From the IMG/VR virus record IMGVR_UViG_3300035214_000047: a DNA stretch of 64,000 bases; one strand, written 5' to 3'. Positions 29,634 through 62,529 of this stretch are shown piece by piece; position 1 is the stretch's first letter; every line of letters starts with the position of its first letter. Made by a program: the position numbers and the translations under genes. The notes beneath the pieces were generated by a model, which was not told the DNA's origin, searched no databases, and was given only the letters and a program-made list of their open reading frames with translations. The stretch is from an uncultured virus (IMG/VR IMGVR_UViG_3300035214_000047) (taxonomy: Duplodnaviria; Heunggongvirae; Uroviricota; Caudoviricetes).

Positions 29634-29666
29634 TTTATTTTCTCCGTTATTGTTTGTTAATACTTC

Positions 29667-29674
29667 TATTTATA
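29667..29674 (-). promoter_or_regulatory. T4-type late promoter
   Basis: TATAAATA upstream of 29633. Confidence 0.7.
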
Positions 29675-29683
29675 CTATTAATG

Positions 29684-33769: not shown

Positions 33770-33799
33770 TTTAATTTTTCCCTATCTTAATTATATTTA

Positions 33800-44773: not shown

Positions 44774-45211
44774 TTATTTCTCCTTATATTTACTATTTAT
44801 ACTAATTCCAGTATCGTATCTTATTTCTTTTTCATACCAATCCCTAATATCAGGTATCATTCCTAAAGTTTCATCCTCTGGGAAAGCAGATATTATTGGA
44901 TTGTAAATATGTTTCTTGTCTTTATATATTTCAAAGTATGGGTCATTACTATACAATAACGCTTGGTCATTTAATAAGTCCCAAAAGTTATCTCCATAAT
45001 CTCTCTCTATCCACTTCGCATAACATATCGCTACACAATAACTCTTTGCAGGATATATAAACTTATCTACTCTTTCGTTCCAATGTTTAATAGCGTAATC
45101 TATTATATCTTGGTCACCCCATATTAAGGATATCTCTTTATCCATTAACATATCCGAGTGAGTAGGATTTAGTCTATGGTAAATTTCTTGTTTGAGCTTC
45201 CATTCTTTCAT
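44774..45211 (-). CDS. Hypothetical protein, last gene of the radical SAM cluster
   Basis: 145-aa aromatic-rich ORF overlapping the upstream gene. Confidence 0.7.
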   Translation of the reverse strand: MKEWKLKQEIYHRLNPTHSDMLMDKEISLIWGDQDIIDYAIKHWNERVDKFIYPAKSYCVAICYAKWIERDYGDNFWDLLNDQALLYSNDPYFEIYKDKKHIYNPIISAFPEDETLGMIPDIRDWYEKEIRYDTGISINSKYKEK

Positions 45212-45968
45212 AACTTATATACTCCAAATTTTTACAATCGCTCCATTCAGGAATGTTTATATTTAAATAACTTTTTTTGTTAACTTTATAAAATTTAATC
45301 CAATGATACCACTTAAACAATTGTTTCCATTCTAGTATCCAACCTTGTACATAATAATTACTAGGGTGCGTATCTTTTTTATAAAATTTCTGTCCTGCAT
45401 ATATATTATTAAATCCTTTACCCACACTATATAAATCGTGTCCAACTAGATAGACTTCTTTTAATTCTCTAATATCTTTACAAGCAATATAACCACTTAA
45501 AGGACCTGATGACCAATCCATTTGTTCGGCGTCTCTTACTATGTCTGCTATATTAATAACATAATCTTTTGTAGACCAACTTACACATACCATATTCTTT
45601 TTAGTTTCTTCATCATTATATCCGTGTAATACAAACTCACTTGAACCTGCTCTACCATTTTCTATTAACTGACCTGATTTTCTTATTGCTCTTAAATGTC
45701 TATACCCAGGAAATAACTTGTGTAGTGTAGTTTCAAATTTAGCTTCAGGTATCGTTATCCAATTTTTAAAAAAACATTTAGCTGTATAACAATATCCAGA
45801 ATTATAAATGTGGTGCATAATTGGAGCGTCTTTTGCAACCAATATATCTGGTACAAAATCTTTATAAAGATTATTACAACCTAATATTACACCACGAGGT
45901 TTTAAAGTTTTTAAATCAAAACCTTTTCTACTTCTTCCATTACCAATACAAAATGCTCTATTTGCCAT
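45174..45968 (-). CDS. Maf/DUF115 or sialyltransferase-like protein (putative glycosyltransferase)
   Basis: AFCIGNGRS..GCNNLY..PDILVAKD and VYLVGHD motifs; start reassigned to the ATG at 45968. Confidence 0.55.
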   Translation of the reverse strand: MANRAFCIGNGRSRKGFDLKTLKPRGVILGCNNLYKDFVPDILVAKDAPIMHHIYNSGYCYTAKCFFKNWITIPEAKFETTLHKLFPGYRHLRAIRKSGQLIENGRAGSSEFVLHGYNDEETKKNMVCVSWSTKDYVINIADIVRDAEQMDWSSGPLSGYIACKDIRELKEVYLVGHDLYSVGKGFNNIYAGQKFYKKDTHPSNYYVQGWILEWKQLFKWYHWIKFYKVNKKSYLNINIPEWSDCKNLEYISYERMEAQTRNLP

Positions 45969-46929
45969 ATTTAAACTGATAAGTATCCAAAACATACTTG
46001 TATCCATTACAACCATCTTTTAAATTATCAACATACTTGTAATGTTCAGTTAAACAACCGCCTAGGTATTCACATTTTTTACAAATATCTGATATGGTCT
46101 TTTCTTTTTCTTTTATACACCAATCTTCGTATTCTTTAAAACTATTTAATTCTAAAAAGTATTCTCTATCGTCTTTATCAAATTCCAATACAGCGAATTT
46201 ACCATTTGGTGTAATATATAAGTGGTCATCACTATAAGCGTTATATTTTCCACTTAACGAGTCTATTATTTTATCTCTATTTACAAAATTATAATCACCA
46301 TCTTTTGATCCCTTTTCCAGCATTAATAAATCTAAAACTTTGTTTTCAAATTCTGTATGTGTTATCTTTTGGTCATTTGCTTGATTAGAACTATAAGGTT
46401 TTAATTCTACACTTTTAAGATGAGATTCTTTATGTTGGTCTATACTCAACTTGTTAATATTATTAAATGTTTGCCACCAATGTTCGCTAGAGCGGCTCAA
46501 CACTTCTCTTGTTGCTAAGCATAATATAGAAAAATCAACTGGAAGTTTCGCCATATTATCTTTAACTTTTTCATAGTCTTGTCTAGTCTCTAAATCATAA
46601 CTAACACTTAAATAATAATCGGGATTAAAAAATTCTTCTCTTAATACAGATAAATTTGTATTGATATTAATTCTATCTTTATAATAAAGTCTAATAACTT
46701 CTGTGATGTTCTTTAATTGTTCTTTCTTTAATATACCAATCTCACCACCATATAAATCAATATGATTAATTTCTCTATGAGCAGAAACTTCTGCTAGTAA
46801 TTCATTTAATCTTTCATCACTTATAGTTTTAGTATCGCCTAATTGTTCAGGTGTAAGATAACACCAAGAACATCTAAAATTACAATGATAAGATGGATTA
46901 ACTGATAAATTAATTTTCTGCTTCGTCAT
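45958..46929 (-). CDS. Radical SAM enzyme 4 with a Cys-rich C-terminus
   Basis: CNFRCSWC, YGGE, C-terminal CKKCEYLGGC..C. Confidence 0.9.
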   Translation of the reverse strand: MTKQKINLSVNPSYHCNFRCSWCYLTPEQLGDTKTISDERLNELLAEVSAHREINHIDLYGGEIGILKKEQLKNITEVIRLYYKDRININTNLSVLREEFFNPDYYLSVSYDLETRQDYEKVKDNMAKLPVDFSILCLATREVLSRSSEHWWQTFNNINKLSIDQHKESHLKSVELKPYSSNQANDQKITHTEFENKVLDLLMLEKGSKDGDYNFVNRDKIIDSLSGKYNAYSDDHLYITPNGKFAVLEFDKDDREYFLELNSFKEYEDWCIKEKEKTISDICKKCEYLGGCLTEHYKYVDNLKDGCNGYKYVLDTYQFKYGK

Positions 46930-47014
46930 AATCTAATTCCTCAAAGAATGGTATAATATCGTATACTTCTTTTTCCATTTGTTGTATAAATTTAAAAAAC
47001 TCTAATTCGCTCAT
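46910..47014 (-). CDS. 34-aa acidic peptide (not in the ORF track)
   Basis: MSELEFFKFIQQMEKEVYDIIPFFEELDYDEAEN*; ATGA overlap with the upstream stop; ends inside the next gene. Confidence 0.6.
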   Translation of the reverse strand: MSELEFFKFIQQMEKEVYDIIPFFEELDYDEAEN

Positions 47015-47532
47015 ATGTTATAATCAAAATAACCAGTAAGTCTTTCAACCCCAGCTTCTTTAAACTCTCCAATTTTATGTTCCCAAGTACTTTTGTGATT
47101 TAATAATATAACATCACACTTACCAGGATATAAAAAAGCAGATAATTGTTTTGTCTCAGCAGTTCTTACTTCTAAATGTCCTCCAGTATCAGGATTACTA
47201 GCTCCAGTAAAATACATAAGAGCTGCTACATTTGCTCCTTCTTTCAAATCATTATGCCAATTTAACGAACCTTTGTCTACTCCATTAATAATTTCTGGTT
47301 GTCCATATAAGTTAAACTTACCAGACAATTGACTAATATATTTATCACCTAAATAAGTATGGCACATTTTGAGAGCTTTCTCAACATCTGGTGTATGTAC
47401 TGCCACTTTATATCCATCTTGTGCTTTAAATGGTATTTCAATACCATCAAAAAATCTAAATGGTACTGGATCCAAAGTAGGCCAAACTCCATTAATTAAA
47501 ACATTTTCTATATTGGAATGACTTCTTCTCAT
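47011..47532 (-). CDS. 2OG-Fe(II) oxygenase
   Basis: WHND..LMYF..GGHLEV..WEHK..ER (HxD...H...R). Confidence 0.8.
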   Translation of the reverse strand: MRRSHSNIENVLINGVWPTLDPVPFRFFDGIEIPFKAQDGYKVAVHTPDVEKALKMCHTYLGDKYISQLSGKFNLYGQPEIINGVDKGSLNWHNDLKEGANVAALMYFTGASNPDTGGHLEVRTAETKQLSAFLYPGKCDVILLNHKSTWEHKIGEFKEAGVERLTGYFDYNI

Positions 47533-48618
47533 TTATGCTTCACTTATATATGGTGTCATTTGTAAATTACTTCCATTTGCTTTTAATATTGCAGGTCCTA
47601 ATCTTTTCATTTTCTCACAATGTTTCTCTATTACTCCTGCTCGTTGATAATCTTTTATTGTCTTTCTACAACCATTACATATATTAAACATTGGACAACT
47701 AAAACAAGATTTTTTCATACTTATTAATGAAACATCATCTTGTAATGGTGTAAAAAACTCACCTTTCATTTCTTTTTTAAAATCTATCTCTTTATCTTTA
47801 TCATCACCGAAAGCACCACAACTATAATAATCTCCATCTGGTTGTAAACATCTTATACCTTCATCACACTTTCTACTTAAAGGACAAGTAGTAGAACAAT
47901 CTTTAATACTCAACATCATTTGTTTTGTATTAAACTCCCAAGGTGCTAAACCTTCTAAATAAATTTTAGTGTATATATTATATATATCTGATAATAAAAA
48001 TGGTTCTTTTTGTTCACCACTCATCATTGCATAATTTAACTTACACTCAACACCTGTCTTCTCTTCTCTCCAAAAAGTATGTAAAGTTCCTTCAGGTTTT
48101 TTATCTTCTGACATATACTTTGCAAGTTTAACATTTTTAATTGCGTTGTGTTCGTTCTCTTTAGTAATAACTGAAATAAAATCTGGTCTATAACCAACAT
48201 ACTTTTTCATTGCGTCTGAACATAACCAAAAGTCTTCTTCTGTAAATTCAGAATAATCACCTTTTAATCTTCCCCCACCATATTGAAAAGAAGTAGTTAC
48301 TCCTATTCTATCGTTATTAAATAAGTCAACCCATAAACTAGGTTTCTTATAAAACGGCCATAAGTTTGTTGTTAGTGCAAGTGAAGTAGTATATTCTCTT
48401 TCATCTAACCATCTAATAATCTTCCAATAGTATTCAGGTTCCATCATCAAAGGATCCCCACCATTTACTATGATAGTTTTAGTTTGTGGAAATCTTGTTA
48501 GAAATTCAAATATTTGTTCGTGTTTTAACCAATTCTTTTTCTCATTAGTCAATTGTGTACTTGAGCAAAAAGTACATTTGAAATTACACAATTCAGTTGG
48601 TTTAATTATTAAGTCCAT
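47533..48618 (-). CDS. Radical SAM/SPASM enzyme 3
   Basis: CNFKCTFC, NGGDP, SPASM-like C..DGDYYSC..CFSCPMFNICNGC. Confidence 0.92.
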   Translation of the reverse strand: MDLIIKPTELCNFKCTFCSSTQLTNEKKNWLKHEQIFEFLTRFPQTKTIIVNGGDPLMMEPEYYWKIIRWLDEREYTTSLALTTNLWPFYKKPSLWVDLFNNDRIGVTTSFQYGGGRLKGDYSEFTEEDFWLCSDAMKKYVGYRPDFISVITKENEHNAIKNVKLAKYMSEDKKPEGTLHTFWREEKTGVECKLNYAMMSGEQKEPFLLSDIYNIYTKIYLEGLAPWEFNTKQMMLSIKDCSTTCPLSRKCDEGIRCLQPDGDYYSCGAFGDDKDKEIDFKKEMKGEFFTPLQDDVSLISMKKSCFSCPMFNICNGCRKTIKDYQRAGVIEKHCEKMKRLGPAILKANGSNLQMTPYISEA

Positions 48619-49196
48619 TACACTATTATTGGTTCAGTCTTTGGTTGGTCTTTTACTTCCCATCCTAATACTAAAGATGTTCTCGGATTTATTCCAAAGT
48701 ATGGTTTAACTCTATGTACTAGAAACCCAGGAAATATTATCAGTCTATTAGCTACAGGTTCTATGTTTACGGTATTATAAGGGTATTCAGCAAAAGTTAA
48801 ATTTTTGTATATACTTAATTCACCACCTACCCATTTTTCAGGTGTATAATCACTTTCTATATAATAGATTGCAGAAATTAAAGCACCTTCAACCTTATCG
48901 TGGTGTGGTTCATATAGATGATTGGTCACACTAGATTGGTCGTACTTCTTTAATCTACCTTTTTGAAAATTAGATAACTCTATATTATTATAGTCTATAT
49001 TGTTTGAAAGACAATAATTTACTATAGTTACATTTGCAATTTCCCAAAACTTCTTTTGACAAGGTGTAAAATTAAATGTATCTTGTCCTTTAATTGTAGT
49101 ATTAATTTTACTTTCTTCTTTTAACTGATTTATTAACTCTTTATCAGTTAAGAAATTATCTAATACATCTATTGTATCTGTAAACCTAATTTGCAT
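48618..49196 (-). CDS. 2OG-Fe(II) oxygenase (prolyl-hydroxylase-like)
   Basis: PHHD..AIYY..GGEL..NRLIIFPGFLVHRV..R. Confidence 0.88.
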   Translation of the reverse strand: MQIRFTDTIDVLDNFLTDKELINQLKEESKINTTIKGQDTFNFTPCQKKFWEIANVTIVNYCLSNNIDYNNIELSNFQKGRLKKYDQSSVTNHLYEPHHDKVEGALISAIYYIESDYTPEKWVGGELSIYKNLTFAEYPYNTVNIEPVANRLIIFPGFLVHRVKPYFGINPRTSLVLGWEVKDQPKTEPIIV

Positions 49197-49818
49197 AATT
49201 TATCCAATTCAAACCAGTTGTTGTTTCTTTATCTCTAATCCAAAAGTGGTCATATACTACATCTTTTTCAAAACCAAATTGTTGCATTATCTCTCTATGG
49301 TAAGGTTCTTTTTGTGCTTTCATTTGGTTCATAGATAAGTGTAAGTAATCAAAATAAGAACCAGAAGGACATAATATCTTTCTATCTTTAAATATATTAA
49401 TTGTTTCACACCACATTGTTCTTATCAATCGTCTTCTTTCTATTGCGCTTTTACTTCTCATATAACCAGGGTACTTTAAAGAGCCTACTATAACATAATC
49501 ATCATAGATATGAAACATACCTACACCTTTTATAAAAGTATTAGGTGTTTTATTATGTACCCACATCTTTTCACCAATATTCTTTTGTGCAAGGTTATAT
49601 GTTTCAATGTCTTCTTCTTTCTTACCTAACCATAAAAATAAATGTGCTTGTCTACTATCTATTCTAGGTATAAACGGAGTTTGTATAGGAAACTTATCTA
49701 ACTGAATTTCAATATCTGTATTATTAATTTTTAGTTTTGAAATATCAGGTTGCGATAAAGTTTCTTTGTACTCGTACATTTTCAATATATCTGTGCGTAA
49801 GTTTGTAAACACACTCAT
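49186..49818 (-). CDS. Hypothetical protein in the radical SAM cluster
   Basis: ORF overlapping both neighbours; the start may be the ATG at 49779. Confidence 0.7.
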   Translation of the reverse strand: MSVFTNLRTDILKMYEYKETLSQPDISKLKINNTDIEIQLDKFPIQTPFIPRIDSRQAHLFLWLGKKEEDIETYNLAQKNIGEKMWVHNKTPNTFIKGVGMFHIYDDYVIVGSLKYPGYMRSKSAIERRRLIRTMWCETINIFKDRKILCPSGSYFDYLHLSMNQMKAQKEPYHREIMQQFGFEKDVVYDHFWIRDKETTTGLNWINYAN

Positions 49819-50797
49819 CCAATTCTTCCCTCCATTTATAATCGTGGTTCATAAAGCATCCTAAAGTACATCTATCCAAAAATTCACAACTAGCACAATT
49901 ATATTTTTCTAAAAATTTATTTTCAATAATTGAATTGTCTCTTTTCTTTATAGGCGAAGCATATGCTACTATATCTTTTGGGTCCTGTACAAGATTACCA
50001 CATTGACATAATGTATTGTCTTGTAATATTAATTTACTTGTTCTACAACTAGCGTAATTTCTTTTCTTAAATATCCATTCTCTTACAGGCGAACATTGTG
50101 GATAGTTATCTATTATATACTTAAAGAACTTTAATAACTCCGTATCGCTAGGCATAAAGACTTTAGCGTGTTGGTCTGGTGTATAATAATCAAAATAAAT
50201 CTCATAACCTTCATCATATAAATGTTTGAAGTATGGATCGCCTTTTTCCAAATGAAACTTTATCATTGGTTTAGTTATTAACATTGAAAAAGATTTTATT
50301 TCTTTTCCCCAATAGATTACTTGTTGTTTAAATCGTTCTAAATCTTTTTCGTTAAATCTTCCTCTCGGGTCATAACTAGTAGTCATTGTTGCTTCAATAC
50401 CTTCCTGTTCAGACCAACTTAATAAATCTCTTAATAACTCATTACCTTCATCACTCATAACCAAATTACTAACCCAATTAATTTTTAATTTTTTATCATA
50501 GCGTTTGCATATCATTTGTATGCCTTTTGATAAAGTTTTATATGCGTGATTTAATTCTGTATTATAGATTGCAGGAGCAAAGACTTCGCCACCCATAATA
50601 TTAAATACAACACTCATCATTAATTCACTTCTGATAAATTTTTCTACAGGAATTACTTTATTGATTACGGTATCTATTCCAACCGTGTCGTTGTGATTTT
50701 GCCAACAGAACCCACACCTTAAATTACAGAATTCAAATAAATGAATTGTGTACTCTTGCTCTGGATCTCTTTTGGGGTCTATTAAAAATTCTCGCAT
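49745..50797 (-). CDS. Radical SAM enzyme 2 with a SPASM-like C-terminus
   Basis: CNLRCGFC, MGGE, C..CQC..CASCEFLDRCTLGC..C. Confidence 0.9.
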   Translation of the reverse strand: MREFLIDPKRDPEQEYTIHLFEFCNLRCGFCWQNHNDTVGIDTVINKVIPVEKFIRSELMMSVVFNIMGGEVFAPAIYNTELNHAYKTLSKGIQMICKRYDKKLKINWVSNLVMSDEGNELLRDLLSWSEQEGIEATMTTSYDPRGRFNEKDLERFKQQVIYWGKEIKSFSMLITKPMIKFHLEKGDPYFKHLYDEGYEIYFDYYTPDQHAKVFMPSDTELLKFFKYIIDNYPQCSPVREWIFKKRNYASCRTSKLILQDNTLCQCGNLVQDPKDIVAYASPIKKRDNSIIENKFLEKYNCASCEFLDRCTLGCFMNHDYKWREELDECVYKLTHRYIENVRVQRNFIAT

Positions 50798-50805
50798 TTA
50801 AACTC

Positions 50806-51921
50806 CTACGAGTTTGCGAATAGTCTGAATTTTCCTAGCGTATTTGAATCGTTATCTTTCTTTAAAGAAAAAAGATATTGTAAAAATGAGTAGTTAACAT
50901 TACTAACATCAAATCTTGGGATATACGCCAAAGACGGACTATTCGTCACCGTTTCATTAATTATTGTATCAAAGTCGCTTGATGATAAAGAATTACCACA
51001 AGCTTTATCAAATTGACTCATTGAGTAATCTGGATTTGGAATATTTTGAAAAGTTTGTAATGTACTAATTAAAGTTTTTAATGCAGTTTGTTTTTCACTT
51101 GTCAAATTATCAATTGTTATTGTATTCACATATCCAGCATTTGCAACAGGTTTAGCAGTAAAAACATCTGTATCAGCAAAGGCAGCCAATTCTGTAATTC
51201 CTTCAAAAGGGTTATCAGCATTTATAACAACATCATTTGCTGAATAACCTAATGCAGTTTGTTGAGATTTATTTAAAAGATTTAGAGCCGCATCCTCTCT
51301 AACATCTGTTAATATTTCTTTATAAAATCTTTGTAAAAACATATGGTAAGTAGTAAGTAAATTAGCTTCGTGTGAATTAGCGCCAGCAAAGTACTCTCCA
51401 AGCAATAATTCAATTGAGAAATCTAAATTAAGCGCTTTAACTCTATCTAAATCTAAAGTAGGTAGAACATTAACATATCCTAGAACATCTCCTAAACCTG
51501 TATTCAATTTAGTTAAATCTAAAGTATGTGTAGGTTGTAGTTGAGTATTTGCTGTGATTCTTTCGTTATGTAGATATAGGTCTAAGTATTTTACAATATT
51601 ATCACTATCAGCAAAAGGTAAGATAGTTTTTAACCATATAATAGAGTATTCTAAAAATGCTTGTGTATCGCAATATATAATAACTTTACTATTTAATGAT
51701 TTTTGTTTAGTACATACATCTTCAAAGAAACCAGTTAAGTCAGAATACTTACCTGACATTTCATTTCTATTCGTTGCATAGTTAATTAGTGTACCACTAT
51801 AAGCAGTCCCTAATTGTTCGTGCATTGCATTTCCTTTATCTTCGGAAATAACATATCTATTTGTATGACAATCTATTGAGTCATCAAAATTTAAATAAAC
51901 TTTATTAAACAGGTGTAGCAT
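50806..51921 (-). CDS. Hypothetical protein in the radical SAM cluster
   Basis: 371-aa ORF overlapping the upstream gene; no family recognised. Confidence 0.75.
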   Translation of the reverse strand: MLHLFNKVYLNFDDSIDCHTNRYVISEDKGNAMHEQLGTAYSGTLINYATNRNEMSGKYSDLTGFFEDVCTKQKSLNSKVIIYCDTQAFLEYSIIWLKTILPFADSDNIVKYLDLYLHNERITANTQLQPTHTLDLTKLNTGLGDVLGYVNVLPTLDLDRVKALNLDFSIELLLGEYFAGANSHEANLLTTYHMFLQRFYKEILTDVREDAALNLLNKSQQTALGYSANDVVINADNPFEGITELAAFADTDVFTAKPVANAGYVNTITIDNLTSEKQTALKTLISTLQTFQNIPNPDYSMSQFDKACGNSLSSSDFDTIINETVTNSPSLAYIPRFDVSNVNYSFLQYLFSLKKDNDSNTLGKFRLFANS

Positions 51922-52597
51922 TTAATTTTCCTATATCGGCTGTTTTAGCTTCGTTGTATTTTTTAGTATCAAATTTTCCTTCAGCAACTGCCCAAGTTAA
52001 TAAGAACAATGGGTTTTCTTTAACTCCCCAAAAATTAAATAGACTTTTACCTTTGAACATATATTCTGTGAAGTATTTAGTATAGTATTTAACATTTTTT
52101 TCATTAGTTTTGTTATAGTAAAAGTAAAAATCTTTATGTTTTAATAAACTAACAAAATTAATACCTTTTACATCATTACTATCGTCTTTAGGATAACTCT
52201 CAACAAACTCTTTAAAAGCACCTTCTCCAATAATAGACATATTATATAAAGGAAGACTTTCTAATTTATTTGCCCATAGTTCAATTATTTCTAAATTTTG
52301 AGAAATAAAAGCACCGTGAACAACATTTTTCATTAAACCTTTATGTTCAAAGAGAACTTGTATAGCAACTCTTTCTAACATAGGTACTTTGACTAACATT
52401 TGTGTTTCAAAATATGCTAATAATAATTCATCATCATAGTTTGACACATCACAAGGGATATCTAAATTACTTAAATAAGTTAAAAATTGTTGTCCTTGTA
52501 ACTCACTCTTTTGATAGTCTATAATATAACTTTGTGTTTTATCTTCAAAGTATTTTTTTAAATTCTTTAATTCAATTGGTACTATAGTTTCAATCAT
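51905..52597 (-). CDS. Hypothetical protein in the radical SAM cluster
   Basis: 230-aa ORF; TAATG coupling to the putative precursor gene. Confidence 0.75.
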   Translation of the reverse strand: MIETIVPIELKNLKKYFEDKTQSYIIDYQKSELQGQQFLTYLSNLDIPCDVSNYDDELLLAYFETQMLVKVPMLERVAIQVLFEHKGLMKNVVHGAFISQNLEIIELWANKLESLPLYNMSIIGEGAFKEFVESYPKDDSNDVKGINFVSLLKHKDFYFYYNKTNEKNVKYYTKYFTEYMFKGKSLFNFWGVKENPLFLLTWAVAEGKFDTKKYNEAKTADIGKLNATPV

Positions 52598-53370
52598 TAT
52601 CTTCTACTCCTACTGCCGTGGCAACTAGAGTGGCAACTTGAATGGCAAATCGTTTTAGTCATTGTATATGTGTTAGCTCTTTCACTGGTATAACTACTTG
52701 CTAATGTAGATAGATAATTTTCTACACTTGTTGAAGTAGCAAGTGCTCCTGTTGATAATGCACCTGGTTGACTAGGCGTCAAGGTGACTCTTTGTGCTGT
52801 TGTTAAATGTGCAATTTCTGTTTGATTATATTGTTGAGCACCACCTGTTAAATTTACTACAGCATTGCAATTTTTAATATTAGTGTAATTATTCATTTCA
52901 TTTTTTAAAGTAGAGTAAATATCATAAGCGTCAATAAGACTTCCTGTATTACCAATATTACCACCAGTTACTCCAACGCTAACTGCTGAAACTTCTGTCA
53001 ATGTTGAAATCGTTCCAATCGCTCCAGAAGAAGCACCAGTTAAAATATCATTTTGTAAAAAATTCGTTTGTCCAGAACCTGGAACTATGTTTCTAACTTT
53101 CAATGTATTACTAGAATAAGATACAACAACTCCTGTTGTAGCTGATATGCTTCCAGTAACCGTTTCGTTAACCGTAAATGTTCCTGTGGTATTAATAAGG
53201 ACTAAAGACATACCATCAACTACTCCACCAAAATCAGCGGTGGTAAACGCTGAGTGTCCTGGTAAGTTATCTGTACCCCATACTATACTAGTATCTGCTA
53301 CATCTGTTACCAATTCTTTAAATCTATCTACTATGTTCTGTGCCGTTATCGGACTTGTTAATGTTACCAT
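52597..53370 (-). CDS. Virion-like protein with C-terminal (CHxS)3-RSRR; putative radical SAM substrate
   Basis: Thr/Ser/Gly-rich body with baseplate-type F..NETVTG..S repeats; ends TICHSSCHSSCHGSRSRR. Confidence 0.75.
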   Translation of the reverse strand: MVTLTSPITAQNIVDRFKELVTDVADTSIVWGTDNLPGHSAFTTADFGGVVDGMSLVLINTTGTFTVNETVTGSISATTGVVVSYSSNTLKVRNIVPGSGQTNFLQNDILTGASSGAIGTISTLTEVSAVSVGVTGGNIGNTGSLIDAYDIYSTLKNEMNNYTNIKNCNAVVNLTGGAQQYNQTEIAHLTTAQRVTLTPSQPGALSTGALATSTSVENYLSTLASSYTSERANTYTMTKTICHSSCHSSCHGSRSRR

Positions 53371-54398: not shown

Positions 54399-54886
54399 TA
54401 TATAACTCCAATACTTAACCCCCAGGTATCAGCTTCACTTTCAACAAAGTGTTCAACACCTTGTTCAATGATAATTCCTTCATCATCATATAAAGGTTTA
54501 ACCTCATTATTAATATTTACTTTCTTTTTTCCTTTTACAACATATAAGTAAACATCTTTATCATCTTTATGAGGTTTGAAACTAATGCCAGCAGTTTGAT
54601 TAACAAATAAATGAATATCTTGTCTTGTCTTACCTGTGATATTCTTTACTACTTCATCTAATACTTCTTTTAACCAAACAACATCTTCTAAACCTTCCAC
54701 CTTAACAATTTTAAACCTGTTATACTCTCTCAACCATTCACCATAACTCATATGTTCTTTAGCCTCACGGTCAAGTCCATTCTCGTCTATGTAAAATAGT
54801 TGTCTTGCTTCGTATCTAGTGTGTGATTGGATTTCTTCTCTTAATCTCTTAATCCATAATAGAGTTTGTTCGTCTTTACTACTCAT
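54398..54886 (-). CDS. Cupin / JmjC-like protein
   Basis: SFKPHKDDKDVYLYVVKGKK..IEQGVEH (HxD...H). Confidence 0.75.
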   Translation of the reverse strand: MSSKDEQTLLWIKRLREEIQSHTRYEARQLFYIDENGLDREAKEHMSYGEWLREYNRFKIVKVEGLEDVVWLKEVLDEVVKNITGKTRQDIHLFVNQTAGISFKPHKDDKDVYLYVVKGKKKVNINNEVKPLYDDEGIIIEQGVEHFVESEADTWGLSIGVI

Positions 54887-54895
54887 AATCTACTC

Positions 54896-56194
54896 CTACT
54901 TACCAACAACTATTTCAACTAATCTTTCTCCTGTTGAATCGTCATTGACTAAAGATTTACCAATTAATGTTCCTGGTCTTGGTTCTGCTTCTGCTCTACC
55001 ACAACCTGCTTGTTCACAACTTACTATCATATCACCTTTTTTAACTGGTCCACATACTTTACAAGAAACTCTTCCTGTTAATGCAACAGCAACTGACATT
55101 CCTTCTAAACTTCCGTTCATTATAAACGCTGGTTTTTCTGATACAACACCAACAACTTTTGAACAATGATTATCTTTACATTGAGTTACCTCGGCAGTTC
55201 CACCTATACATAATACCGTTCCTACTTCGTATTCTTTATCAACAAGATATTTTTCTGCCAAGTCAGCATAATTTGCTTGTGTAGAAGTTGTAGTTAATGT
55301 ATTAGTAGAAGGATTGTAATAAAAATCTGTATCTGTTTTTAATCCATTGTTACCTGTAGCATTATCACTAAAGGTAATAAATCTTGTTGCGTTAGTACTA
55401 TTATCAGCAGTTAAAGCAACTTGACTTGCAGTAGCAGCAAGACCTGTAATATTATTTGCAATTAAAGTGTCTACGGTTAATGTTGAAGTTGGAAAATCTT
55501 TTAATTTAGCAATCGTTATTGAAGCGTCAGCTATTTGGTCTGTACTTACAGCAGAATTTGCTAACATAGTTTGAGTAACCGTACCTGTATCAGCAGTAGT
55601 AATTACGGTTCCTGATATATCTGGTATAGTAATTGTATTAGCAGCAGTTGGGTCAGTAACCCTTATCGTTGTTGCAAAAGCATCCGAAGTAGCGCCTTCC
55701 ATTAAAAATTCAGCACCATTGATTGTTAATCCTGTACCAACTATTGCTCCACCAGTAATTCCACCAGTAGTAGTTAGGTTTTCGTTACCGAAACTTATAG
55801 CACCACCTGTTGCAATTATTGAACCACTTGAAAGGGTTAAATCTCCTATCTCAACAGAAGTTGCAACATCTATAGTATTAATACCTGTTAAATCTGTGTT
55901 TATACCAAGTGTTAATGTATCTGGTGCTGAAACTAACGCAGTTATTCCTGTTGTTGTACTTACGGTTAATGTATTACCAGAAGCAACCGCTTGTGAGTTT
56001 TGGCCATCTGTTAATGTGAAACCAGCAGCGGCAATTGCAATTCCATTAATTTCGTTAACAGCACCTATAACCGTAGTTGCTGATAATGAAGCGTCCAATG
56101 TTGCAATATCACCAAAGTCAGATAAAGCTAGAGCATTAAACTCTATCCTTAACTTGTCTAAACTATCTGTCGTTGCTACTTGTCTAACTGCCAT
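54896..56194 (-). CDS. Tail fibre protein with a C-terminal chaperone-like domain
   Basis: T/G/A-rich shaft; C-terminal YADLAEKY..GVVSEKPA..VALTGRV..KGD..IGKSL. Confidence 0.8.
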   Translation of the reverse strand: MAVRQVATTDSLDKLRIEFNALALSDFGDIATLDASLSATTVIGAVNEINGIAIAAAGFTLTDGQNSQAVASGNTLTVSTTTGITALVSAPDTLTLGINTDLTGINTIDVATSVEIGDLTLSSGSIIATGGAISFGNENLTTTGGITGGAIVGTGLTINGAEFLMEGATSDAFATTIRVTDPTAANTITIPDISGTVITTADTGTVTQTMLANSAVSTDQIADASITIAKLKDFPTSTLTVDTLIANNITGLAATASQVALTADNSTNATRFITFSDNATGNNGLKTDTDFYYNPSTNTLTTTSTQANYADLAEKYLVDKEYEVGTVLCIGGTAEVTQCKDNHCSKVVGVVSEKPAFIMNGSLEGMSVAVALTGRVSCKVCGPVKKGDMIVSCEQAGCGRAEAEPRPGTLIGKSLVNDDSTGERLVEIVVGK

Positions 56195-56421: not shown

Positions 56422-59400
56422 TTATATCGCAAGCGCAATTCCTCTCATATCTCGTACTATTGGTGGATAAGAACTATTGTTTCCTTTTAATACTATTTTA
56501 GTTTGGAATGCTGTAAATGTATTTACATTACTTGCTGAATATTGATATTCTCTAAAGTCATCATCAGCTTCAGAAGCAGTAACCGTTTTGTCTGCTTCAC
56601 CAGCAGTATTAAATGGTGTCCAGTTAATCTCATTTATATTTCTAACTTCATCAGCACTTGTTGTTCTATAATAAACTTCTACTTTAGCACTTGTTCTTAC
56701 TACTTGCGTCAATCTAATATCTAACGCTGTTGAGTTGTTTGTTAACACTACAGGTTTTGTAATATATTTTGAAGCACTTGAAGAACCATTAGCTGCTGTT
56801 TCTGATTGAAACGAAGGTGTATTTCCTGAAGTTGGATTATTTAATCTGTTTGTAATACAAAAAACACTTCTTCTAGCTAAGTCAATAATTGGAGAAATTT
56901 TTGGATTTGTTGTTGACATCTCCATAATAACATAAAAAGATTTTGCACCAGCCATACGAGTAGTTTCATTTGGTGTTGACATAACTGCTTGTGGTTGAGT
57001 AAAGTATATATCATCTGCCAAAGTAACCGATTGTCTATTAGCTTCACTAAGTAAACTATATGGTGTTTGTGTTCCGTGAATTGATTTTGATGTTGTTGTT
57101 CTTACAAATGGAACAATTGAAGTTCCAGGAACTGATAGTGATTGTAGACCACCTAAATTCAATACATCAAATTGTCTATTTTCTGTAGCAGTAACCGCTG
57201 TACCTCCAACATCTCCTGATGAAGTTGCAGTTCCGCTAGTTGTTACATCATAAGTGTCTAAAGTTACATTTGTTATAGCAGTATAATCACCATTAATATC
57301 TGTATGAGCAATACCATTGTGAGTACCATTTGGAACTCCTGCAATAGTAACACACGAATTTGTATCGTGTAAATTATGATTTTTATGATACACTCTAACT
57401 ACACCAGAACTATTTGTTGTTCTAATTGGATTTTGTTTTAATGTTTTAGCACTTAAAGTTTTATTTGATAAGTGAACCGTTCCAGTAACAGCAGAAAACT
57501 CACATCTTTTCATTGTGAATTTAATATCTTCGTTATTCTCAGCAGTCCAAGTTGAACCATTTTGAGATTTAAACATAACACCAGCATATGGTTGTTTTGA
57601 TATTGTTCTACTAGAACCTATATTTGTTTCGCCTAATCTCGCAACATAAGTTTCATAATCATTTGAGTTAGACATAATAACAAAAGAATACTCTACTTGG
57701 TCTTGTATATAAACAGGACTAGGAAAAGTAAATGTTGTTTTTACTGAAGCGTCTGAACTTGTATTAACAGCAGAAGGAATTAAAGTAACTTCTCCAAATG
57801 GAAGTATTTTACTTCCAGGATAACCATTAACCGTATTTCTAATTTGTACGGTTACAGGAATATTTGCGTCTTTAGTAGAGAAATATAAATCTATAGAAGA
57901 TAAACATACTCCACCCTTTTCATCTGTCATAAAAGTTTGTGATAATGGGTCAACCCATCCAACCGTTTGTACTACTTGTCTTGTACTTGTTCTAATAACC
58001 GATTGTTGGTCTGTTACCGTTGTGTTTACACCTCTAAATTCTCTAGTTGAAACAATTGTATCTCTAACCGTATTCAATAGACCTCTAGCAATATATTCAG
58101 CATTAGCAGCTGTAGAAACAGCAGCAGCATCCATAGAGTTAGTACTTGATGAAGTTAATCTAAATGTTCTTTCACCTGTACGCCATCTTGGATTTGTATC
58201 AATTTTTGGATCAGGTATTGAGAAAACACCAGATACAGCACCATTAGCATCCGTAACTAAATTACCTCCAAGTGAACCACTTGTTGGAGTTACATAAGAA
58301 GTTATATCTACATTATCAAAGAAAGGATAAACTCTAGCATTTGGTTTTAATCTCGTTGCAACAAAAGCAACATCCCTGCTTCTAATAAATGGAACAAAAG
58401 CAACATCAATTACTCTATCTCCCATACTTGTTCTAACCGTTTGAGGTACAGCAGTTGTTGTAATTCCTGTTCTACTTTGGTTAACTTGGTTGATAGAAGT
58501 AATGTTAACTCTTTGTCTAACTGCTCTACCGTGTCTCCAAGTACTACCTGTTCTTTGACTACCAATATCCATTATTGGACTTCCAGTCCAATTTGTTTGC
58601 CATTCGTTCCAAACCGTACCAAGTGCTATTTCATTTTGATTAGGAACTCTTCCTTCTCTTAACAATTGGTCCCAAGCACCAGTAGTAGAATTTACTACTA
58701 GTTCAGGTGTTCGTTGTGTTTCTCTCCATTCATCTGAACTTGGAGTTAATTCTATTGTTCCCATCCAACTAAAAATTGCAAATGGATTAACATTAATCGC
58801 TTTAGAAGCGAAAGGTTGATTAATTAAATCTTTTTCTACAAATGGTAATAATAAACAATCACCAATCTTTTGATAGTTAGCAGCCGTTCTATCAGCGTCA
58901 ACTAAAGCTGTTCCGTCTTCATCTACTTCTTCCAACTCAACAGCGTCTTGGTTAAAATGAGGTCTTAATTCTCCTTTTGCATAATCAACTGAACATCTGT
59001 AATCGCTATTTGTAACCTCACCAATACCGTGACCTTTAAAATTATCTACTATAAATCCATTTTTAAATCTATCAAAGCCATCAGCGTCTTGTATTTGTAA
59101 TGATTGAGCAGCAGTTTCTAATAAAGATAATTGAGTATAATATTCAACTCTATCAACTTTCTTTTCAATAGAACCAATATCTCTCATTGTATATCTTCTA
59201 TTATTAATTGTTTCAAAAATTACATCATCCGTTGTTAAGTTATAAGCAGGTAATGAAATTGTGTATAGGTGCATAGCATTATCAATTATATCAGGCGCTT
59301 GTGGTTTAACATCTGGAGCACCAGATAATACTTTAAACTCACCATCTTTTGTTAAGAATAATTTATCTATTCTTCCTTTATAAAATTCGTGGTCTGAATT

Positions 59401-62400
59401 AACAGAAGTTCCAAATTTAACAATATCAATAGTTGAAGCACCTGTACCATCATAACTCCTATTTTGTGTACCAGCATTAATTGTAGTTGCGTCATCTACT
59501 CTAGGTCTGAAATCTAAACAATCTCTTAATCTATAATCGTCACCAGTTGTATCAGAAGTATAAGTTGGAATTAATGTATAATCTATTTGTCCTGAATAAC
59601 TATCTACACTAAAGAAATCTCCATTACCATGTGTAAAATAATTAAATGTAATTAGTAATTGTCCAGTTGGATTTAAACTTCCATCAACTCTTTTTAATCT
59701 TCCAATATCATAGAAGTTATCTCTTTGACCATTGTCTAAAGAAAATCTATCTGTAATGTCTGTATCTCCAGAAACAGGTGTTGTTGAAAAGTCAGCAGCC
59801 ATTTTAACAGAAGCAAGAGAGTAAATATCAGCTTTGCCTAAAGAGATAGTACTTGCTTCACAATCTGCTTGAGTTGTAATAGTTGAAGTCGCATTTGAAG
59901 TTAAAGTTTTTGTTTTTTCGTTTTGTGCTGTTTTACTTAAAGTTCCAATAATTTTTACTTTGTGTCCTTGATGATTAGCACCAAAATCTAAAGTTAAAGT
60001 ACGACCAACAGGTGAACCAGATAACGCAAAACAAGCGTCACCTTCGTGTTGGTTTCCAGTTGTAGATAATTTATCTCCAACAACACCAGCAGAAGAAGAA
60101 CCGCCTTTTGTCATTATGGTTACTGAATAATCTGCTTCTGATTGAGATATAAAAGTCTCTCCAGTATTTGCAGTAATAGTAATATCTCCTGTTGAAGTTA
60201 ATGTTCCAACAAAAGATTTTCTAACCGTAAATGCAGTATCACTTATACCTGAATTTACAATTGTCTTTAATGTTTTAATTGTACTATAAGGTAATTCAAA
60301 GATACCAATATTTTTATCAGCTTCTTGTAATTTTGTTCTTCGTCTAATTACAATTGAACTAGACACAGCAGTTCCACCAATAGCACTTCCTAGTGTTAAT
60401 GCTGAAGAAGATATAATTTCTATAACTTCTCTTGTTGTAATTGTTCCACCTGTATCAGCAAATTGGATTGAATCTCCAACTTTTAATTCTGTATTAAATT
60501 TAGAATTGAAACCTACTACAGATTGTCCACCACCTGATACTGAAATTGTTCCAGATAGTTGTACATTTTCTCCATACGCTGATGATAATTCTGTTTGAGC
60601 AGTATAAGTTGGACTTCCTGCCATTGTAATTTCTTTTACATCACTAGAACCATAACTTGTAAATGCTTTGTTTTCAAATACATCTGTTTTAGTTGTTGCA
60701 GTATTAGAAGAAGTACCACCTGTAACCGTTTCATTAGGTAAAAAATCTCCTTGTACATTTGATACAACTACTTTAGAAGTTGCAATATTTCCACCTGTAC
60801 CTGCGCCTGTGTGACCAGTTCCGTCAACAGCAGTTCCGCTTGAGTCATATAATGCAAATTCTCTTTTAGCAGTACCACCAATTACTTGTTTAACATAATA
60901 AACATTATCATTTAATTCTGTTTGTGTACTAACACTAGTAATTGTTATTGCGTCACCATTTTTAATATCTAAATCAGCAGCCATTGTTATAACAACAGGA
61001 TCAGCAGCTGTAGATGAAGAGATTGTAGAAGTTGTATTTGTAGATACACTTTCAACAACAGCAGTTGCACCAGAAGAAGAACCTGTTAAAGTTTCACCAG
61101 TTGTAAATGCTTGGCTAGTAGTAATACCTATATGACTAAACATTTCTATATCAAATAGATAATGTTTATAAATTTCACTTGTTGATGGACTTATATTTCC
61201 TGAACCTGATATTGCGGCTCCTGTACTTGCGTTATATTCAAAACCTTTAGATTTGGCACGACCAATATCTAATATTAAATTTTCATTATTTGCAGTAATT
61301 GTTCCAGCAGCATAAGTTGGTGAAGAAAGTTTTAATTGTAATGCTTTAAAGGCTTCTGTTTCTCCTGTTATAAAATTTACATCTGGAGAACCATATACAT
61401 TAGATACATTAACATAATTTCCAACATCAAATTTTGTAGGGAAACCACTTTCAGTTCCAAATGTTCTTGCCTTATCTATTGTAACAAATTCGGTTCCTAC
61501 TTTTTCTATTTCGTATCCTTTAACATATGCTTTTCCTGGAGATAATCCTAATGCAAGTTTAGTTTCTAAACCACCATTTCCTGATGTATAAATTCCTCTA
61601 TTATCTCCTGAACTTAAATGTTCTCTAACATCTAAATCAAAAGTTCTTATAGTATAATCTCCACTTTCATCACTTGTTCTACGAGCAAGAGTATCTTCTA
61701 AAATAGCATATTCAGTACTTCTAACTATATTTTGTAAAGCACCACTACTTAATCTTAATAATTCTATAAAGTTTGTATCTGTAATTGCAGTTAAAGCAAG
61801 TTTACTAAGTGTTAATGCAATTTTAAATCTGTGAGCACCTGGAGCATTTACATTTGAAGAACCTTGAGCATTATCTACAAGTGTACTATCGTTGTTAGGT
61901 GTTACAAAACTTTCTGTGATTGTTAAACCAATTCTATATGATGGTTCGTTTGTATATTTGTCTAATACTAAAGTTTGTTTATCAACATTAACAGCATACC
62001 CATTAATGTAATAAGTACCAGCAGCAACTGAAGCAGCTGAACCTGTATATGATTCTGTACATACAGCAGTTAGATTACCTAAACTTGCGTGTACTGCTAC
62101 CATTGATTCACCAGCAACAAAGTCGTTTGTATTATTACCTACACCAGTTTTATTATATTTAACATATAAAGTATTTGGGTCAGTTGAAGTTGCAATATCA
62201 ACAGCAACAATCTTCGCTTCAACAGCAGAAGTTTGTCCTATTAAAGTAAGTCCAACAAAATCTGATAATGTACTTGTACCTGTAAATGAAGTTAACTTAA
62301 CAGAATAGTATTGTAAGTCGTAAGTAATCTCACCAGGTATCATCTGAGCACCACTTTCAAATATGTGGTTACCCATTTTTTCAATCTGATTTTGTAAGAT

Positions 62401-62529
62401 TGTCTGTGATTGTGTTAACTCTCTAGCCTGTACAGCAAAAGCTGGTCTGAATAATATTCTATGGAAGCTTTTACTTTCCGAGAAATCATCATAATAAGGC
62501 GAGAGATTAAAGTCAGTTGGACTTGGCAT
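56422..62529 (-). CDS. Very large baseplate-associated virion protein (VrlC/DUF4815-like)
   Basis: NLSPYYDDF..RILFRP..VQARELTQSQTILQNQIE, APGAHR, GKAYVKGYE, RFKNGFIVDNF, DPLSQTF. Confidence 0.88.
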   Translation of the reverse strand: MPSPTDFNLSPYYDDFSESKSFHRILFRPAFAVQARELTQSQTILQNQIEKMGNHIFESGAQMIPGEITYDLQYYSVKLTSFTGTSTLSDFVGLTLIGQTSAVEAKIVAVDIATSTDPNTLYVKYNKTGVGNNTNDFVAGESMVAVHASLGNLTAVCTESYTGSAASVAAGTYYINGYAVNVDKQTLVLDKYTNEPSYRIGLTITESFVTPNNDSTLVDNAQGSSNVNAPGAHRFKIALTLSKLALTAITDTNFIELLRLSSGALQNIVRSTEYAILEDTLARRTSDESGDYTIRTFDLDVREHLSSGDNRGIYTSGNGGLETKLALGLSPGKAYVKGYEIEKVGTEFVTIDKARTFGTESGFPTKFDVGNYVNVSNVYGSPDVNFITGETEAFKALQLKLSSPTYAAGTITANNENLILDIGRAKSKGFEYNASTGAAISGSGNISPSTSEIYKHYLFDIEMFSHIGITTSQAFTTGETLTGSSSGATAVVESVSTNTTSTISSSTAADPVVITMAADLDIKNGDAITITSVSTQTELNDNVYYVKQVIGGTAKREFALYDSSGTAVDGTGHTGAGTGGNIATSKVVVSNVQGDFLPNETVTGGTSSNTATTKTDVFENKAFTSYGSSDVKEITMAGSPTYTAQTELSSAYGENVQLSGTISVSGGGQSVVGFNSKFNTELKVGDSIQFADTGGTITTREVIEIISSSALTLGSAIGGTAVSSSIVIRRRTKLQEADKNIGIFELPYSTIKTLKTIVNSGISDTAFTVRKSFVGTLTSTGDITITANTGETFISQSEADYSVTIMTKGGSSSAGVVGDKLSTTGNQHEGDACFALSGSPVGRTLTLDFGANHQGHKVKIIGTLSKTAQNEKTKTLTSNATSTITTQADCEASTISLGKADIYSLASVKMAADFSTTPVSGDTDITDRFSLDNGQRDNFYDIGRLKRVDGSLNPTGQLLITFNYFTHGNGDFFSVDSYSGQIDYTLIPTYTSDTTGDDYRLRDCLDFRPRVDDATTINAGTQNRSYDGTGASTIDIVKFGTSVNSDHEFYKGRIDKLFLTKDGEFKVLSGAPDVKPQAPDIIDNAMHLYTISLPAYNLTTDDVIFETINNRRYTMRDIGSIEKKVDRVEYYTQLSLLETAAQSLQIQDADGFDRFKNGFIVDNFKGHGIGEVTNSDYRCSVDYAKGELRPHFNQDAVELEEVDEDGTALVDADRTAANYQKIGDCLLLPFVEKDLINQPFASKAINVNPFAIFSWMGTIELTPSSDEWRETQRTPELVVNSTTGAWDQLLREGRVPNQNEIALGTVWNEWQTNWTGSPIMDIGSQRTGSTWRHGRAVRQRVNITSINQVNQSRTGITTTAVPQTVRTSMGDRVIDVAFVPFIRSRDVAFVATRLKPNARVYPFFDNVDITSYVTPTSGSLGGNLVTDANGAVSGVFSIPDPKIDTNPRWRTGERTFRLTSSSTNSMDAAAVSTAANAEYIARGLLNTVRDTIVSTREFRGVNTTVTDQQSVIRTSTRQVVQTVGWVDPLSQTFMTDEKGGVCLSSIDLYFSTKDANIPVTVQIRNTVNGYPGSKILPFGEVTLIPSAVNTSSDASVKTTFTFPSPVYIQDQVEYSFVIMSNSNDYETYVARLGETNIGSSRTISKQPYAGVMFKSQNGSTWTAENNEDIKFTMKRCEFSAVTGTVHLSNKTLSAKTLKQNPIRTTNSSGVVRVYHKNHNLHDTNSCVTIAGVPNGTHNGIAHTDINGDYTAITNVTLDTYDVTTSGTATSSGDVGGTAVTATENRQFDVLNLGGLQSLSVPGTSIVPFVRTTTSKSIHGTQTPYSLLSEANRQSVTLADDIYFTQPQAVMSTPNETTRMAGAKSFYVIMEMSTTNPKISPIIDLARRSVFCITNRLNNPTSGNTPSFQSETAANGSSSASKYITKPVVLTNNSTALDIRLTQVVRTSAKVEVYYRTTSADEVRNINEINWTPFNTAGEADKTVTASEADDDFREYQYSASNVNTFTAFQTKIVLKGNNSSYPPIVRDMRGIALAI

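Follow-up and report, generated by a model that had tools for sequence, protein, structure and literature searches.

What is a phage protein that ends in three Cys-His units doing beside a radical S-adenosylmethionine (radical-SAM) enzyme? Is its C-terminus a peptide precursor, a metal site or the substrate of the neighbouring enzyme? The question arises from a 64,000-nucleotide stretch of DNA of an uncultured virus (IMG/VR record IMGVR_UViG_3300035214_000047), which was analysed at its full length and is called the window here. A 257-residue protein encoded in it, termed the Cys-His (CH) protein, ends in CHSS-CHSS-CHGS-RSRR, and the gene directly upstream, rSAM1, encodes an enzyme with radical-SAM and SPASM domains. 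On balance we favour an answer in which the adjacent enzyme acts on the tail, a protein-borne substrate that is not released but remains part of a virion protein from the host-recognition module.

The tail and its gene

The codons and position given for the tail in the original prediction, which was made from the letters of the window, match the minus strand exactly. Read from 52647 to 52600 they are TGC CAT TCA AGT / TGC CAC TCT AGT / TGC CAC GGC AGT / AGG AGT AGA AGA, preceded by ...TKTI and followed by a TAA stop (52599-52597). The pattern (TGYCAY N6)x3 is found a single time in the 64 kb, none of 100 dinucleotide-preserving shuffles contains any match, and a six-frame translation of the window has one CH..CH. 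Outside the tail the protein has a single cysteine (C168) and two histidines (H39, H188), and the body is rich in Thr (16%), Ser (12%) and Gly (9%), in keeping with the Cys-poor, Thr/Gly-rich character first noted.

Within the gene the repeats differ by synonymous codons, which had been taken as a sign of selection on the protein. A wider comparison agrees. Across 26 related loci (24 from marine phages, with Atu_ph07 and RSL2) there are 18 distinct versions of the tail DNA, which encode a conserved peptide despite TGC/TGT and CAT/CAC changes and two-step AGY<->TCN changes in the serine codons. Such a pattern shows purifying selection on the tail peptide, rather than DNA slippage.

The start of the gene overlaps the stop of rSAM1, as had been remarked, by 7 nucleotides in the string ATGGTAA, with GAGG a few bases upstream. 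Its own stop and the start of the following gene, p230, share one nucleotide (TAATG, the last A of TAA being the first of ATG). With these overlaps the three genes are packed as a translationally coupled unit.

A large family with a conserved end

The CH protein has no Pfam or NCBIfam family match, and phrog_35144 matches only its last 35 residues (223-257). Neither tblastn with the CH protein and with a 188-residue homologue nor megablast with positions 45000-56000 gave a match in the phage collection. A search of clustered public proteins returned 154 matches, and in 110 of the 120 listed the pattern CH..CH..CH..R.RR forms the C-terminus. Of the other ten, nine are fragments or chimeras that lack a true C-terminus and one has its first His replaced by Asn. 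In several tail-less homologues, P0024 and P0028 among them, the ends run into unrelated sequence, some of which looks like read-through into sequencing adaptors; these entries are assembly artefacts, not natural variants.

A profile search of 1.84 billion representatives at E<=1e-3 enlarged the family to 701 representative clusters. The exact tail is present in 132 of the 144 newly listed representatives, the other 12 being truncated or slight variants (an extra Gly before R-x-R-R, or one altered Cys-His unit). Conservation in homologues, named at the outset as the check to be made on the motif, is thus evident in both searches. Ser or Asn stands two residues after each His in 131, 127 and 127 of the 132 sequences, the residue between varies widely, and 88 sequences have no cysteine outside the tail. 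Only P37, G136, C242, H243, C246, H247, C250, H251, R254, R256 and R257 are invariant when 71 sequences are aligned; mean column conservation is 0.91 in the tail compared with 0.21-0.71 in the body. The alignments therefore portray CH proteins as a large, uncharacterised family with the tail as its most conserved part. A literature search found no paper describing the family or its tail; subscription-only papers, for example on the RSL2/RSF1 virion proteome, lay outside that search.

One metagenomic member (P0151, 453 residues) carries a glycine-rich domain (PF21722, E 7e-11) ahead of a complete tail-bearing CH-type domain. This fusion is a single case and might come from gene calling.

Linkage to radical-SAM genes

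Twenty-four IMG/VR loci share a gene order that runs from a 2035-residue baseplate protein through p77, fib432, cupin, rSAM1, CH protein, p230 and p371 to rSAM2 and beyond. Two of these marine-phage loci begin inside the CH gene and were excluded from the upstream count; in the 22 that reach upstream, rSAM1 is always directly upstream of the CH gene. Identity across the loci is 68-89% for rSAM1 and 31-76% for the CH protein.

The pairing extends to distant phages. A search of phage genomes with rSAM1 identified 15 jumbo-phage records at 43-53% identity, and it was solely by this route that jumbo-phage CH orthologues were reached. In all four phages considered (Atu_ph07, RSL2, Phosso and pPa_SNUABM_DT01) a cupin gene is followed by a radical-SAM gene and then by a 178-306-residue tail protein. 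The C-terminal ends of these CH proteins are, in the same order, CHSSCHASCHNSRSRR, CHSSCHTSCHGSRGRR, CHTSCHASCHSSRSRR and CHTSCHTSCHSARGRR. The bodies of the Atu_ph07 and RSL2 proteins, the two tested, have no BLAST match to the CH protein of the window.

When viral contigs were scanned blind with the back-translated tail, at least 123 stretches matched, and 80 loci from 77 contigs were examined, some of the contigs overlapping the earlier marine-phage set. An open reading frame (ORF) ends in the motif at every one of the 80 loci. A radical-SAM homologue lies within 3 kb in 64, rSAM1 is directly upstream in 60 and p230 is present in 58.

The motif is not confined to viral contigs. Scanning bacterial and archaeal assemblies, with each prokaryotic species represented by one genome, yielded 47 loci: 37 with a motif-ending ORF, one cut by a contig end and nine chance matches in other frames, which were dropped. 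Most of the true loci belong to Bdellovibrionota assemblies, where the contigs carrying them reach 2.8 Mb. Radical-SAM homologues occur within 4 kb in 32 of the 37, usually with homologues of p230, p371, p145 or the cupin. Three of the remaining five come from one Rhodobacteraceae bin with three rSAM1 orthologues on other contigs, a fourth has an rSAM1 orthologue about 4.4 kb beyond the CH gene, past the stretch examined, and the fifth is at a contig end. The number of Cys-His units varies in some bacterial loci (3, 4 or 2+3), by analogy much as in repeat-type radical-SAM substrates. The association of the tail with a radical-SAM neighbour, first proposed for the window, accordingly holds across distant phages and predatory bacteria.

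Predicted structure of the CH protein

An AlphaFold2 model of the CH protein (mean predicted local distance difference test score, pLDDT, 91.1; predicted template modelling score 0.84) consists of an N-terminal helix, a beta-barrel insert, a mixed alpha/beta core, a long C-terminal helix and a last strand (234-241). Confidence is low in the tail (block mean pLDDT 63 and 53), which is therefore read as flexible and is predicted to be an exposed extension of a well-folded body. Co-folding rSAM1 with CH residues 205-257 scored 0.02 against a mark of 0.32 and was counted neither way.

The insert, with an occupancy of 0.28 among aligned members, resembles small barrel domains of cyanophage fibre and structural proteins in BFVD. 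It also matches the Klebsiella phage KP1 baseplate chain 9f4a_AY (Z 7.8, root-mean-square deviation 2.1, 69 residues aligned). A Foldseek search of the PDB with the CH model gave nothing at E<=1e-3, and in a VIA-wide search the insert domain alone was matched, the core (1-51, 130-241) having no convincing solved match. The best BFVD matches are uncharacterised phage proteins of 178 and 173 residues that span the whole core; the Atu_ph07 protein is also among the BFVD matches.

Evidence from virions

Is the CH protein part of the virus particle? In Atu_ph07 the orthologue gp170 is recorded in purified virions as a hypothetical protein of 31.89 kDa, with 8 unique peptides and 35.16% coverage (PMC6102473, Table S5). 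Masses computed for annotated gp170, gp176 and gp177 (31.89, 66.07 and 21.66 kDa) equal those in the table, confirming the numbering. The fib432-type fibre protein gp176 is also in the virions (PMC6102473). That virion table does not list gp169 (p230-like), gp171 (radical-SAM) or gp172 (cupin). By orthology the CH protein of the window is probably a virion component.

This bears on the description of the tail in the original prediction as a core peptide fused to a structural protein. The structural carrier is upheld by gp170; a core peptide of the kind found in peptides that are made by ribosomes and modified after translation (RiPPs) is not. In a true RiPP the folded body would be a long leader, and the 16-residue tail would be modified, cut off and released as a bioactive peptide or cofactor. 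Such a pathway would account for a Cys-rich C-terminal repeat beside SPASM enzymes and for several tailoring enzymes in one operon. We nevertheless judge it very improbable. The body is confidently folded, with a fibre-type insert, and in Atu_ph07 it is found in virions; Pfam, PHROG and NCBIfam scans of the cassette detected no protease or exporter family; and an invariant 'core' behind a variable 'leader' is the reverse of most RiPP families. Together the folded body, its presence in the virion, the invariant tail and the lack of a detected protease or exporter argue for a modified protein rather than a released peptide.

The distribution of gp170 in the gel is unusual for its size. It is present in slices 1-9 and most abundant in slice 1, at the top (PMC6102473, Table S5). 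That table holds 43 proteins of 25-40 kDa, and a slice-1 peak is limited to gp170 (8 peptides), gp321 (2) and gp616 (1); proteins of 127-139 kDa have their peak in that slice, those of about 30 kDa normally peaking in slices 7-8. A covalent staple, made from the tail by the radical-SAM enzymes and fixing the CH protein into the fibre or baseplate or to its own copies, would explain a 31.9-kDa protein at the top of a sodium dodecyl sulfate (SDS) gel. We regard this reading as improbable. Were it true, marine T4-like phages, jumbo phages and Bdellovibrio-like predators, the last in their fibre-bearing attack apparatus, would share a new, enzyme-made kind of virion cross-link.

A simpler link is conceivable. 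The tail cysteines might form disulfides between copies or with virion proteins after lysis, His, Ser and Arg serving to tune their reactivity. The slice-1 peak suits this proposal, as does the gel loading buffer, whose description names no reducing agent (PMC6102473). With the invariant His, the R-x-R-R and the linkage to radical-SAM genes all left unexplained, the prospect that disulfides are the whole purpose of the tail is slight in the extreme.

The rSAM1 enzyme

If the tail is an enzyme substrate, what sort of enzyme is rSAM1? The CxxxCxxC motif (C13, C17, C20) is invariant in 24 of 24 orthologues. PF04055 aligns with residues 8-93 at 23.5 bits, below the cut-off of 29.5, and the SPASM domain TIGR04085 passes at 29.0 bits against 27. 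Seven SPASM cysteines (C247, C263, C302, C305, C311, C315 and C325) are invariant in the same 24 sequences and an eighth, C244, is present in 20; this extra cysteine might bear on whether a cluster site is open, which would favour a thioether. Since the radical-SAM motif starts at residue 13 there is no room for an N-terminal recognition domain.

By profile the closest solved relative is an anaerobic sulfatase-maturating enzyme (anSME; 4k37, E 3.6e-9, residues 12-317 against 12-332). The sequence aligns weakly, near full length, with the DynA, PapB, HxsB, CbpB and anSME models, but falls far below the cut-offs: DynA 40.7 against 450 bits; PapB, one of the best two NCBIfam matches, 40.8 against 340; HxsB 36.1 against 370; and anSME (TIGR03942) 34.8 against 349. 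Corresponding values are 31.4 against 425 for the SCIFF maturase, 21.9 against 350 for TIGR04115, 31.3 against 445 for YhhB and 20 against 370 for FxsB, the last in the N-terminal part. XyeB is absent among the 25 family matches listed. PADLOC gave solely a generic N-terminal viperin-like similarity for the radical-SAM proteins, and no match for the CH protein, p230, cupin, p371, p145, p280 or p210. From these profiles rSAM1 appears to be a SPASM-type, protein- or peptide-modifying radical-SAM enzyme of no described family.

A proposed role for the tail

Five observations argue for an enzyme-substrate pair. The tail is invariant and apparently exposed; Cys, His and the Ser/Asn that follows are fixed in its repeat unit; its gene is translationally coupled to that of a SPASM enzyme; the pairing persists when the bodies have diverged past the reach of BLAST; and the protein is in virions, where the enzymes are not listed. 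It is from these that we infer the occurrence of a modification, the acting enzyme, its chemistry and its role.

We propose the following scheme. The CH protein would belong to the baseplate/fibre host-recognition module of a T4-like marine myovirus. A conserved N-terminal helix, a variable middle (in this case with the fibre-type beta-barrel) and a C-terminal helix and strand make up the body; from it would project the flexible 16-residue tail, (Cys-His-x-Ser/Asn)x3 followed by Arg-x-Arg-Arg. rSAM1, translated in tandem, would take hydrogen atoms from tail residues and add covalent changes. Candidate chemistries are a bond between His and the beta-carbon of the Ser/Asn at the second position after it, a thioether between Cys and the third residue after it, or conversion of Cys by oxidation into formylglycine, as carried out by anSME. 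The cupin, p230 and perhaps the three other radical-SAM enzymes and the 2-oxoglutarate (2OG) oxygenases would assist or add further marks. The finished tail would remain on the CH protein as a conserved anchoring, cross-linking or ligand-binding element, and the variable middle would adapt to the host. As the tail does not change between phages whose hosts are very different, whilst the middle varies, we infer that it serves a conserved partner or ligand (anchoring, cross-linking, metal or anion binding) and not host-specific recognition.

Several points weigh against this scheme. Modification of the tail is so far without direct evidence in any organism. rSAM1 lies under every curated family cut-off, so no chemistry is assignable to it from its profile matches. 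Four radical-SAM genes are present and linkage alone cannot say which of them acts, if any. The virion evidence comes from gp170, a distant orthologue, and not from the phage of the window; the top-of-gel signal could be explained by disulfides or by an SDS-stable oligomer, which fit as well as an enzyme-made link since no reducing agent is named in the loading buffer. Clusters of Cys and His are classic metal ligands. Finally, 16 of the 80 viral motif loci have no radical-SAM gene within 3 kb.

Those 16 loci have a layout of their own, type B, in which one or two short CH genes (124-186 residues) directly follow a fibre gene with a fib432-type C-terminal domain. T-even phages keep genes for fibre adhesins or chaperones in the same position, directly after the fibre gene. 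In five of five type B contigs tested, an rSAM1 orthologue (E about 1e-138) is found 5-12 kb away. Occurrence of the motif without radical-SAM neighbours had been set down beforehand as an observation that would count against the tail being a substrate; with the enzyme gene nearby in 64 of 80 loci and on all five of these contigs, this is not the pattern seen. Viral loci with the type B layout include L084, L109, L117-L119, L122, L127, L138, L143, L147, L150, L152, L158, L161 and L163, and in most cases the tail-bearing genes of such loci, 124-140 residues long, come as a tandem pair. The layout is also seen in L044, L054 and L071, from bacterial bins, with a fibre gene of about 1,160-1,200 residues.

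The main competing explanation is an unmodified metal-binding tail (Zn, Fe or Cu), perhaps shared between subunits, with the radical-SAM genes acting on something else. Metal sites are familiar in phage fibres and spike tips, with His-coordinated Fe or Zn in T4 gp37 and gp12 and Zn in PAAR tips. The three Cys and three His at i/i+4 spacing, the fibre/baseplate-type domain in the body, the position of the gene inside a host-recognition cluster and the 16 loci where it sits beside a fibre gene, not beside a radical-SAM gene, would all be compatible with such a site. What metal binding does not explain is the strict gene order and the start/stop overlap with rSAM1 across unrelated phages, nor the rSAM1 orthologue on all five of the 'distant' contigs tested, nor the near-fixed Ser/Asn after His and the variable repeat number. 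We consider it unlikely, though deserving of more weight than the other alternatives.

A further suggestion is that the CH protein is an enzyme accessory, its tail carrying or donating an Fe-S cluster or electrons to the four radical-SAM enzymes. The tail cysteines could hold a cluster, and marine T4-like phages are reported with Fe-S assembly proteins and many radical-SAM genes (PMC5332604). There is however no similarity to Fe-S scaffold families (Pfam, NCBIfam), gp170 is in virions where the enzymes are not listed, and both the type B genes that follow fibre genes and the fibre-type insert are contrary to an accessory role. We give this explanation hardly any weight.

The cassette and its surroundings

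Coordinates of the CH gene, its tail and the accompanying features are collected in Table 1.

Table 1. Features of the CH locus, with positions in the window
Feature	Coordinates	Strand	Remarks
Cys-His tail CHSS-CHSS-CHGS-RSRR	52600..52647	minus	Residues 242-257; candidate modification site
CH protein gene, 257 aa, ATG start	52597..53370	minus	ORF call
Inserted small beta-barrel, residues 52-129	52984..53217	minus	Restricted to the ~257-aa subgroup
rSAM1, radical-SAM/SPASM enzyme, 344 aa	53364..54398	minus	phrog_1802 'radical SAM domain-containing protein' E 6.5e-65; candidate tail maturase
Small cupin, 162 aa	54398..54886	minus	Cupin_2 E 2e-5, JmjC_2 E 0.003, both under cut-offs
p230, 230 aa	51905..52597	minus	phrog_20767; most constant companion gene of CH
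fib432, fibre-like protein with conserved Cys-rich C-terminal domain	54896..56194	minus	phrog_19602 'tail fiber protein' E 4.6e-6
p371, rSAM2, p210, 2OG oxygenase, rSAM3, 2OG oxygenase, rSAM4, p280, p145	44774..51921	minus	ORFs and families
2035-aa baseplate protein, start of host-recognition cluster	56422..62529	minus	phrog_358

Belonging to a T4-like myovirus, the window carries genes for gp46/47-like nuclease subunits, a helicase, the major head protein, scaffold, protease, portal, sheath, large terminase, neck proteins, baseplate wedge proteins and several giant fibre proteins. The CH gene lies in an operon on the minus strand (44774-54886) with four radical-SAM/SPASM genes, two 2OG-Fe(II) oxygenases, the cupin and five conserved unknowns (p371, p210, p280, p145 and p230). 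The order of the genes at 44774..51921 is conserved in related marine-phage loci, and subsets of them recur beside Bdellovibrionota CH genes. Some of the proteins p371, p210, p280, p145 and p230 may in turn be substrates for the other radical-SAM enzymes. One of the oxygenases, of 192 residues, is weakly like prolyl 4-hydroxylase (E 8e-4).

The cupin gene is directly upstream of rSAM1, and its product has no informative solved relative (best E 0.71). Homologues of p230 occur in most Bdellovibrionota CH loci. An AlphaFold2 model of p230 (pLDDT 88.3) gave no Foldseek match at E<=1e-3, a best VIA match of Z 4.2 over residues 1-54 only, and no usable match in the Atlas. The C-terminal domain of fib432 shares 45% identity over 94 residues with Atu_ph07 gp176. 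This Cys-rich domain, found also at L025 1596-3419, weakly resembles the Peptidase_G2 autoproteolytic domain (E 0.004).

A 113-residue protein (44160-44501) marks the end of the cassette and accompanies it in related loci; it has an LtfC-like, L-shaped tail fibre assembly match (phrog_3304, E 2.7e-20). At the opposite end is the 2035-residue baseplate protein. A protein called VrlC, which replaces gp7, is described as bounding a 'host recognition cluster' that holds radical-SAM cassettes (PMC7029224), and the baseplate protein is presumably this VrlC. The jumbo phages FLC6 and RSF1 share cupin, Fe-S oxidoreductase, radical-SAM and 2OG genes, to which the account cited gives no function (PMC8066314), and a T4-like environmental genome with 12 radical-SAM genes has been reported (PMC5332604).

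In two Bdellovibrionota genomes (L078-L081) the cassette is flanked by ordinary chromosomal genes, namely those for lysyl-tRNA synthetase, signal peptidase II, a branched-chain amino-acid ABC transporter, thiolase, acyl-CoA dehydrogenase and catalase-peroxidase. The ORFs scanned around the cassettes of these two genomes included none for phage heads or packaging. Endosialidase-chaperone (Peptidase_S74) proteins of 345 and 372 residues and a 2355-residue RCC1/Big_2 protein are encoded near the Bdellovibrionota cassettes. The company of fibre-type proteins suggests a link between the cassette and the predators' own fibre-like adhesins.

Also near these cassettes (L078-L081) is a B12-binding radical-SAM gene. 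In the window, three giant proteins (732, 1361 and 1073 residues; 27015-37021, minus strand) have RCC1-type repeats (phrog_4219), a repeat shared with the 2355-residue protein just mentioned.

The known products of SPASM enzymes are small modified peptides and, more rarely, matured whole proteins (sulfatases; HxsA). If the tail is indeed a substrate, SPASM chemistry would be used to finish a virion protein of the host-recognition module, and (C-H-x-S/N)n-R-x-R-R would be a new radical-SAM substrate motif. The family concerned is very large and abundant in the environment, its 701 clusters ranging from marine T4-like phages and jumbo phages of plant-associated bacteria to Bdellovibrionota chromosomes. 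A function would also be provided for the unexplained 'radical SAM cassettes' of pelagimyophages (PMC7029224) and of jumbo phages (PMC8066314).

Comparison with known systems

How does the CH system compare with those already described? The nearest appears to be the HXS anti-phage system, in which HxsA, with His-x-Ser repeats, is matured by the radical-SAM proteins HxsB and HxsC together with HxsD (PMC13128918). The modification was mapped to one SHRSS unit, at +8 Da (PMC13128918). A link from His to a beta-carbon is suspected for HxsA. In both systems a whole protein carries tandem His-x-Ser units and basic residues next to radical-SAM genes, the CH tail having three H-x-S/N units and then R-x-R-R. 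Membership is not indicated. The HXS family models are unmatched (HxsB by rSAM1, as given above; HxsC 31.7 against 267.9 bits for rSAM3), and at E<=0.01 there is no HxsA match for the CH protein and no HxsD match for p230 or other small proteins. Each CH unit begins with an invariant Cys, Pfam detects no peptidoglycan-binding domain in the CH protein, and, unlike a periplasmic defence effector of bacteria, the CH protein is phage-encoded in a structural operon and has an orthologue in virions.

The triceptide enzymes HaaB, HtkB and YhhB connect C2 of His with the beta-carbon of the second residue after it; their motifs, HAA, HTK and HNR, are often repeated (PMC11499958). The CH tail conforms to this precursor motif, with an invariant His, a free middle residue and then Ser/Asn. 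It differs in that the carrier is a folded, virion-type protein of 257 residues, in the invariant Cys, which has no triceptide counterpart, and in an enzyme outside the cyclophane-synthase family (YhhB and FxsB far below cut-off). With ranthipeptides and sactipeptides the system shares a Cys-rich C-x-x-x repeat beside a SPASM enzyme, and PapB aligns over its full length. Here too there are differences: a folded 257-residue protein in place of a short leader-core precursor, the absence of an N-terminal recognition domain from rSAM1, and scores for PapB, SCIFF maturase and TIGR04115 that are far below their cut-offs.

In size and in its bare radical-SAM plus SPASM architecture rSAM1 is similar to anSME, which modifies a Cys within a full-length protein. 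The sulfatase motif is C/S-x-P/A-x-R, and the last tail unit, C-H-x-S/N-R, has the same Cys-to-Arg spacing. However the CH protein has no sulfatase domain (Pfam), the +2 position is Gly, Ser or Asn and not Pro or Ala, and two of the three units end in Cys instead of Arg. Metal sites of phage fibres and spikes provide the last comparison, the likeness being that a fibre/baseplate-module protein bears a Cys/His cluster. Those sites are internal to trimeric folds and are not known to have radical-SAM genes beside them, whereas the CH motif is a predicted flexible C-terminal tail tied genetically to a maturase-type enzyme. As far as family models and gene content allow a judgement, the CH system would work like the HXS, triceptide, ranthipeptide and anSME systems whilst belonging to none of them.

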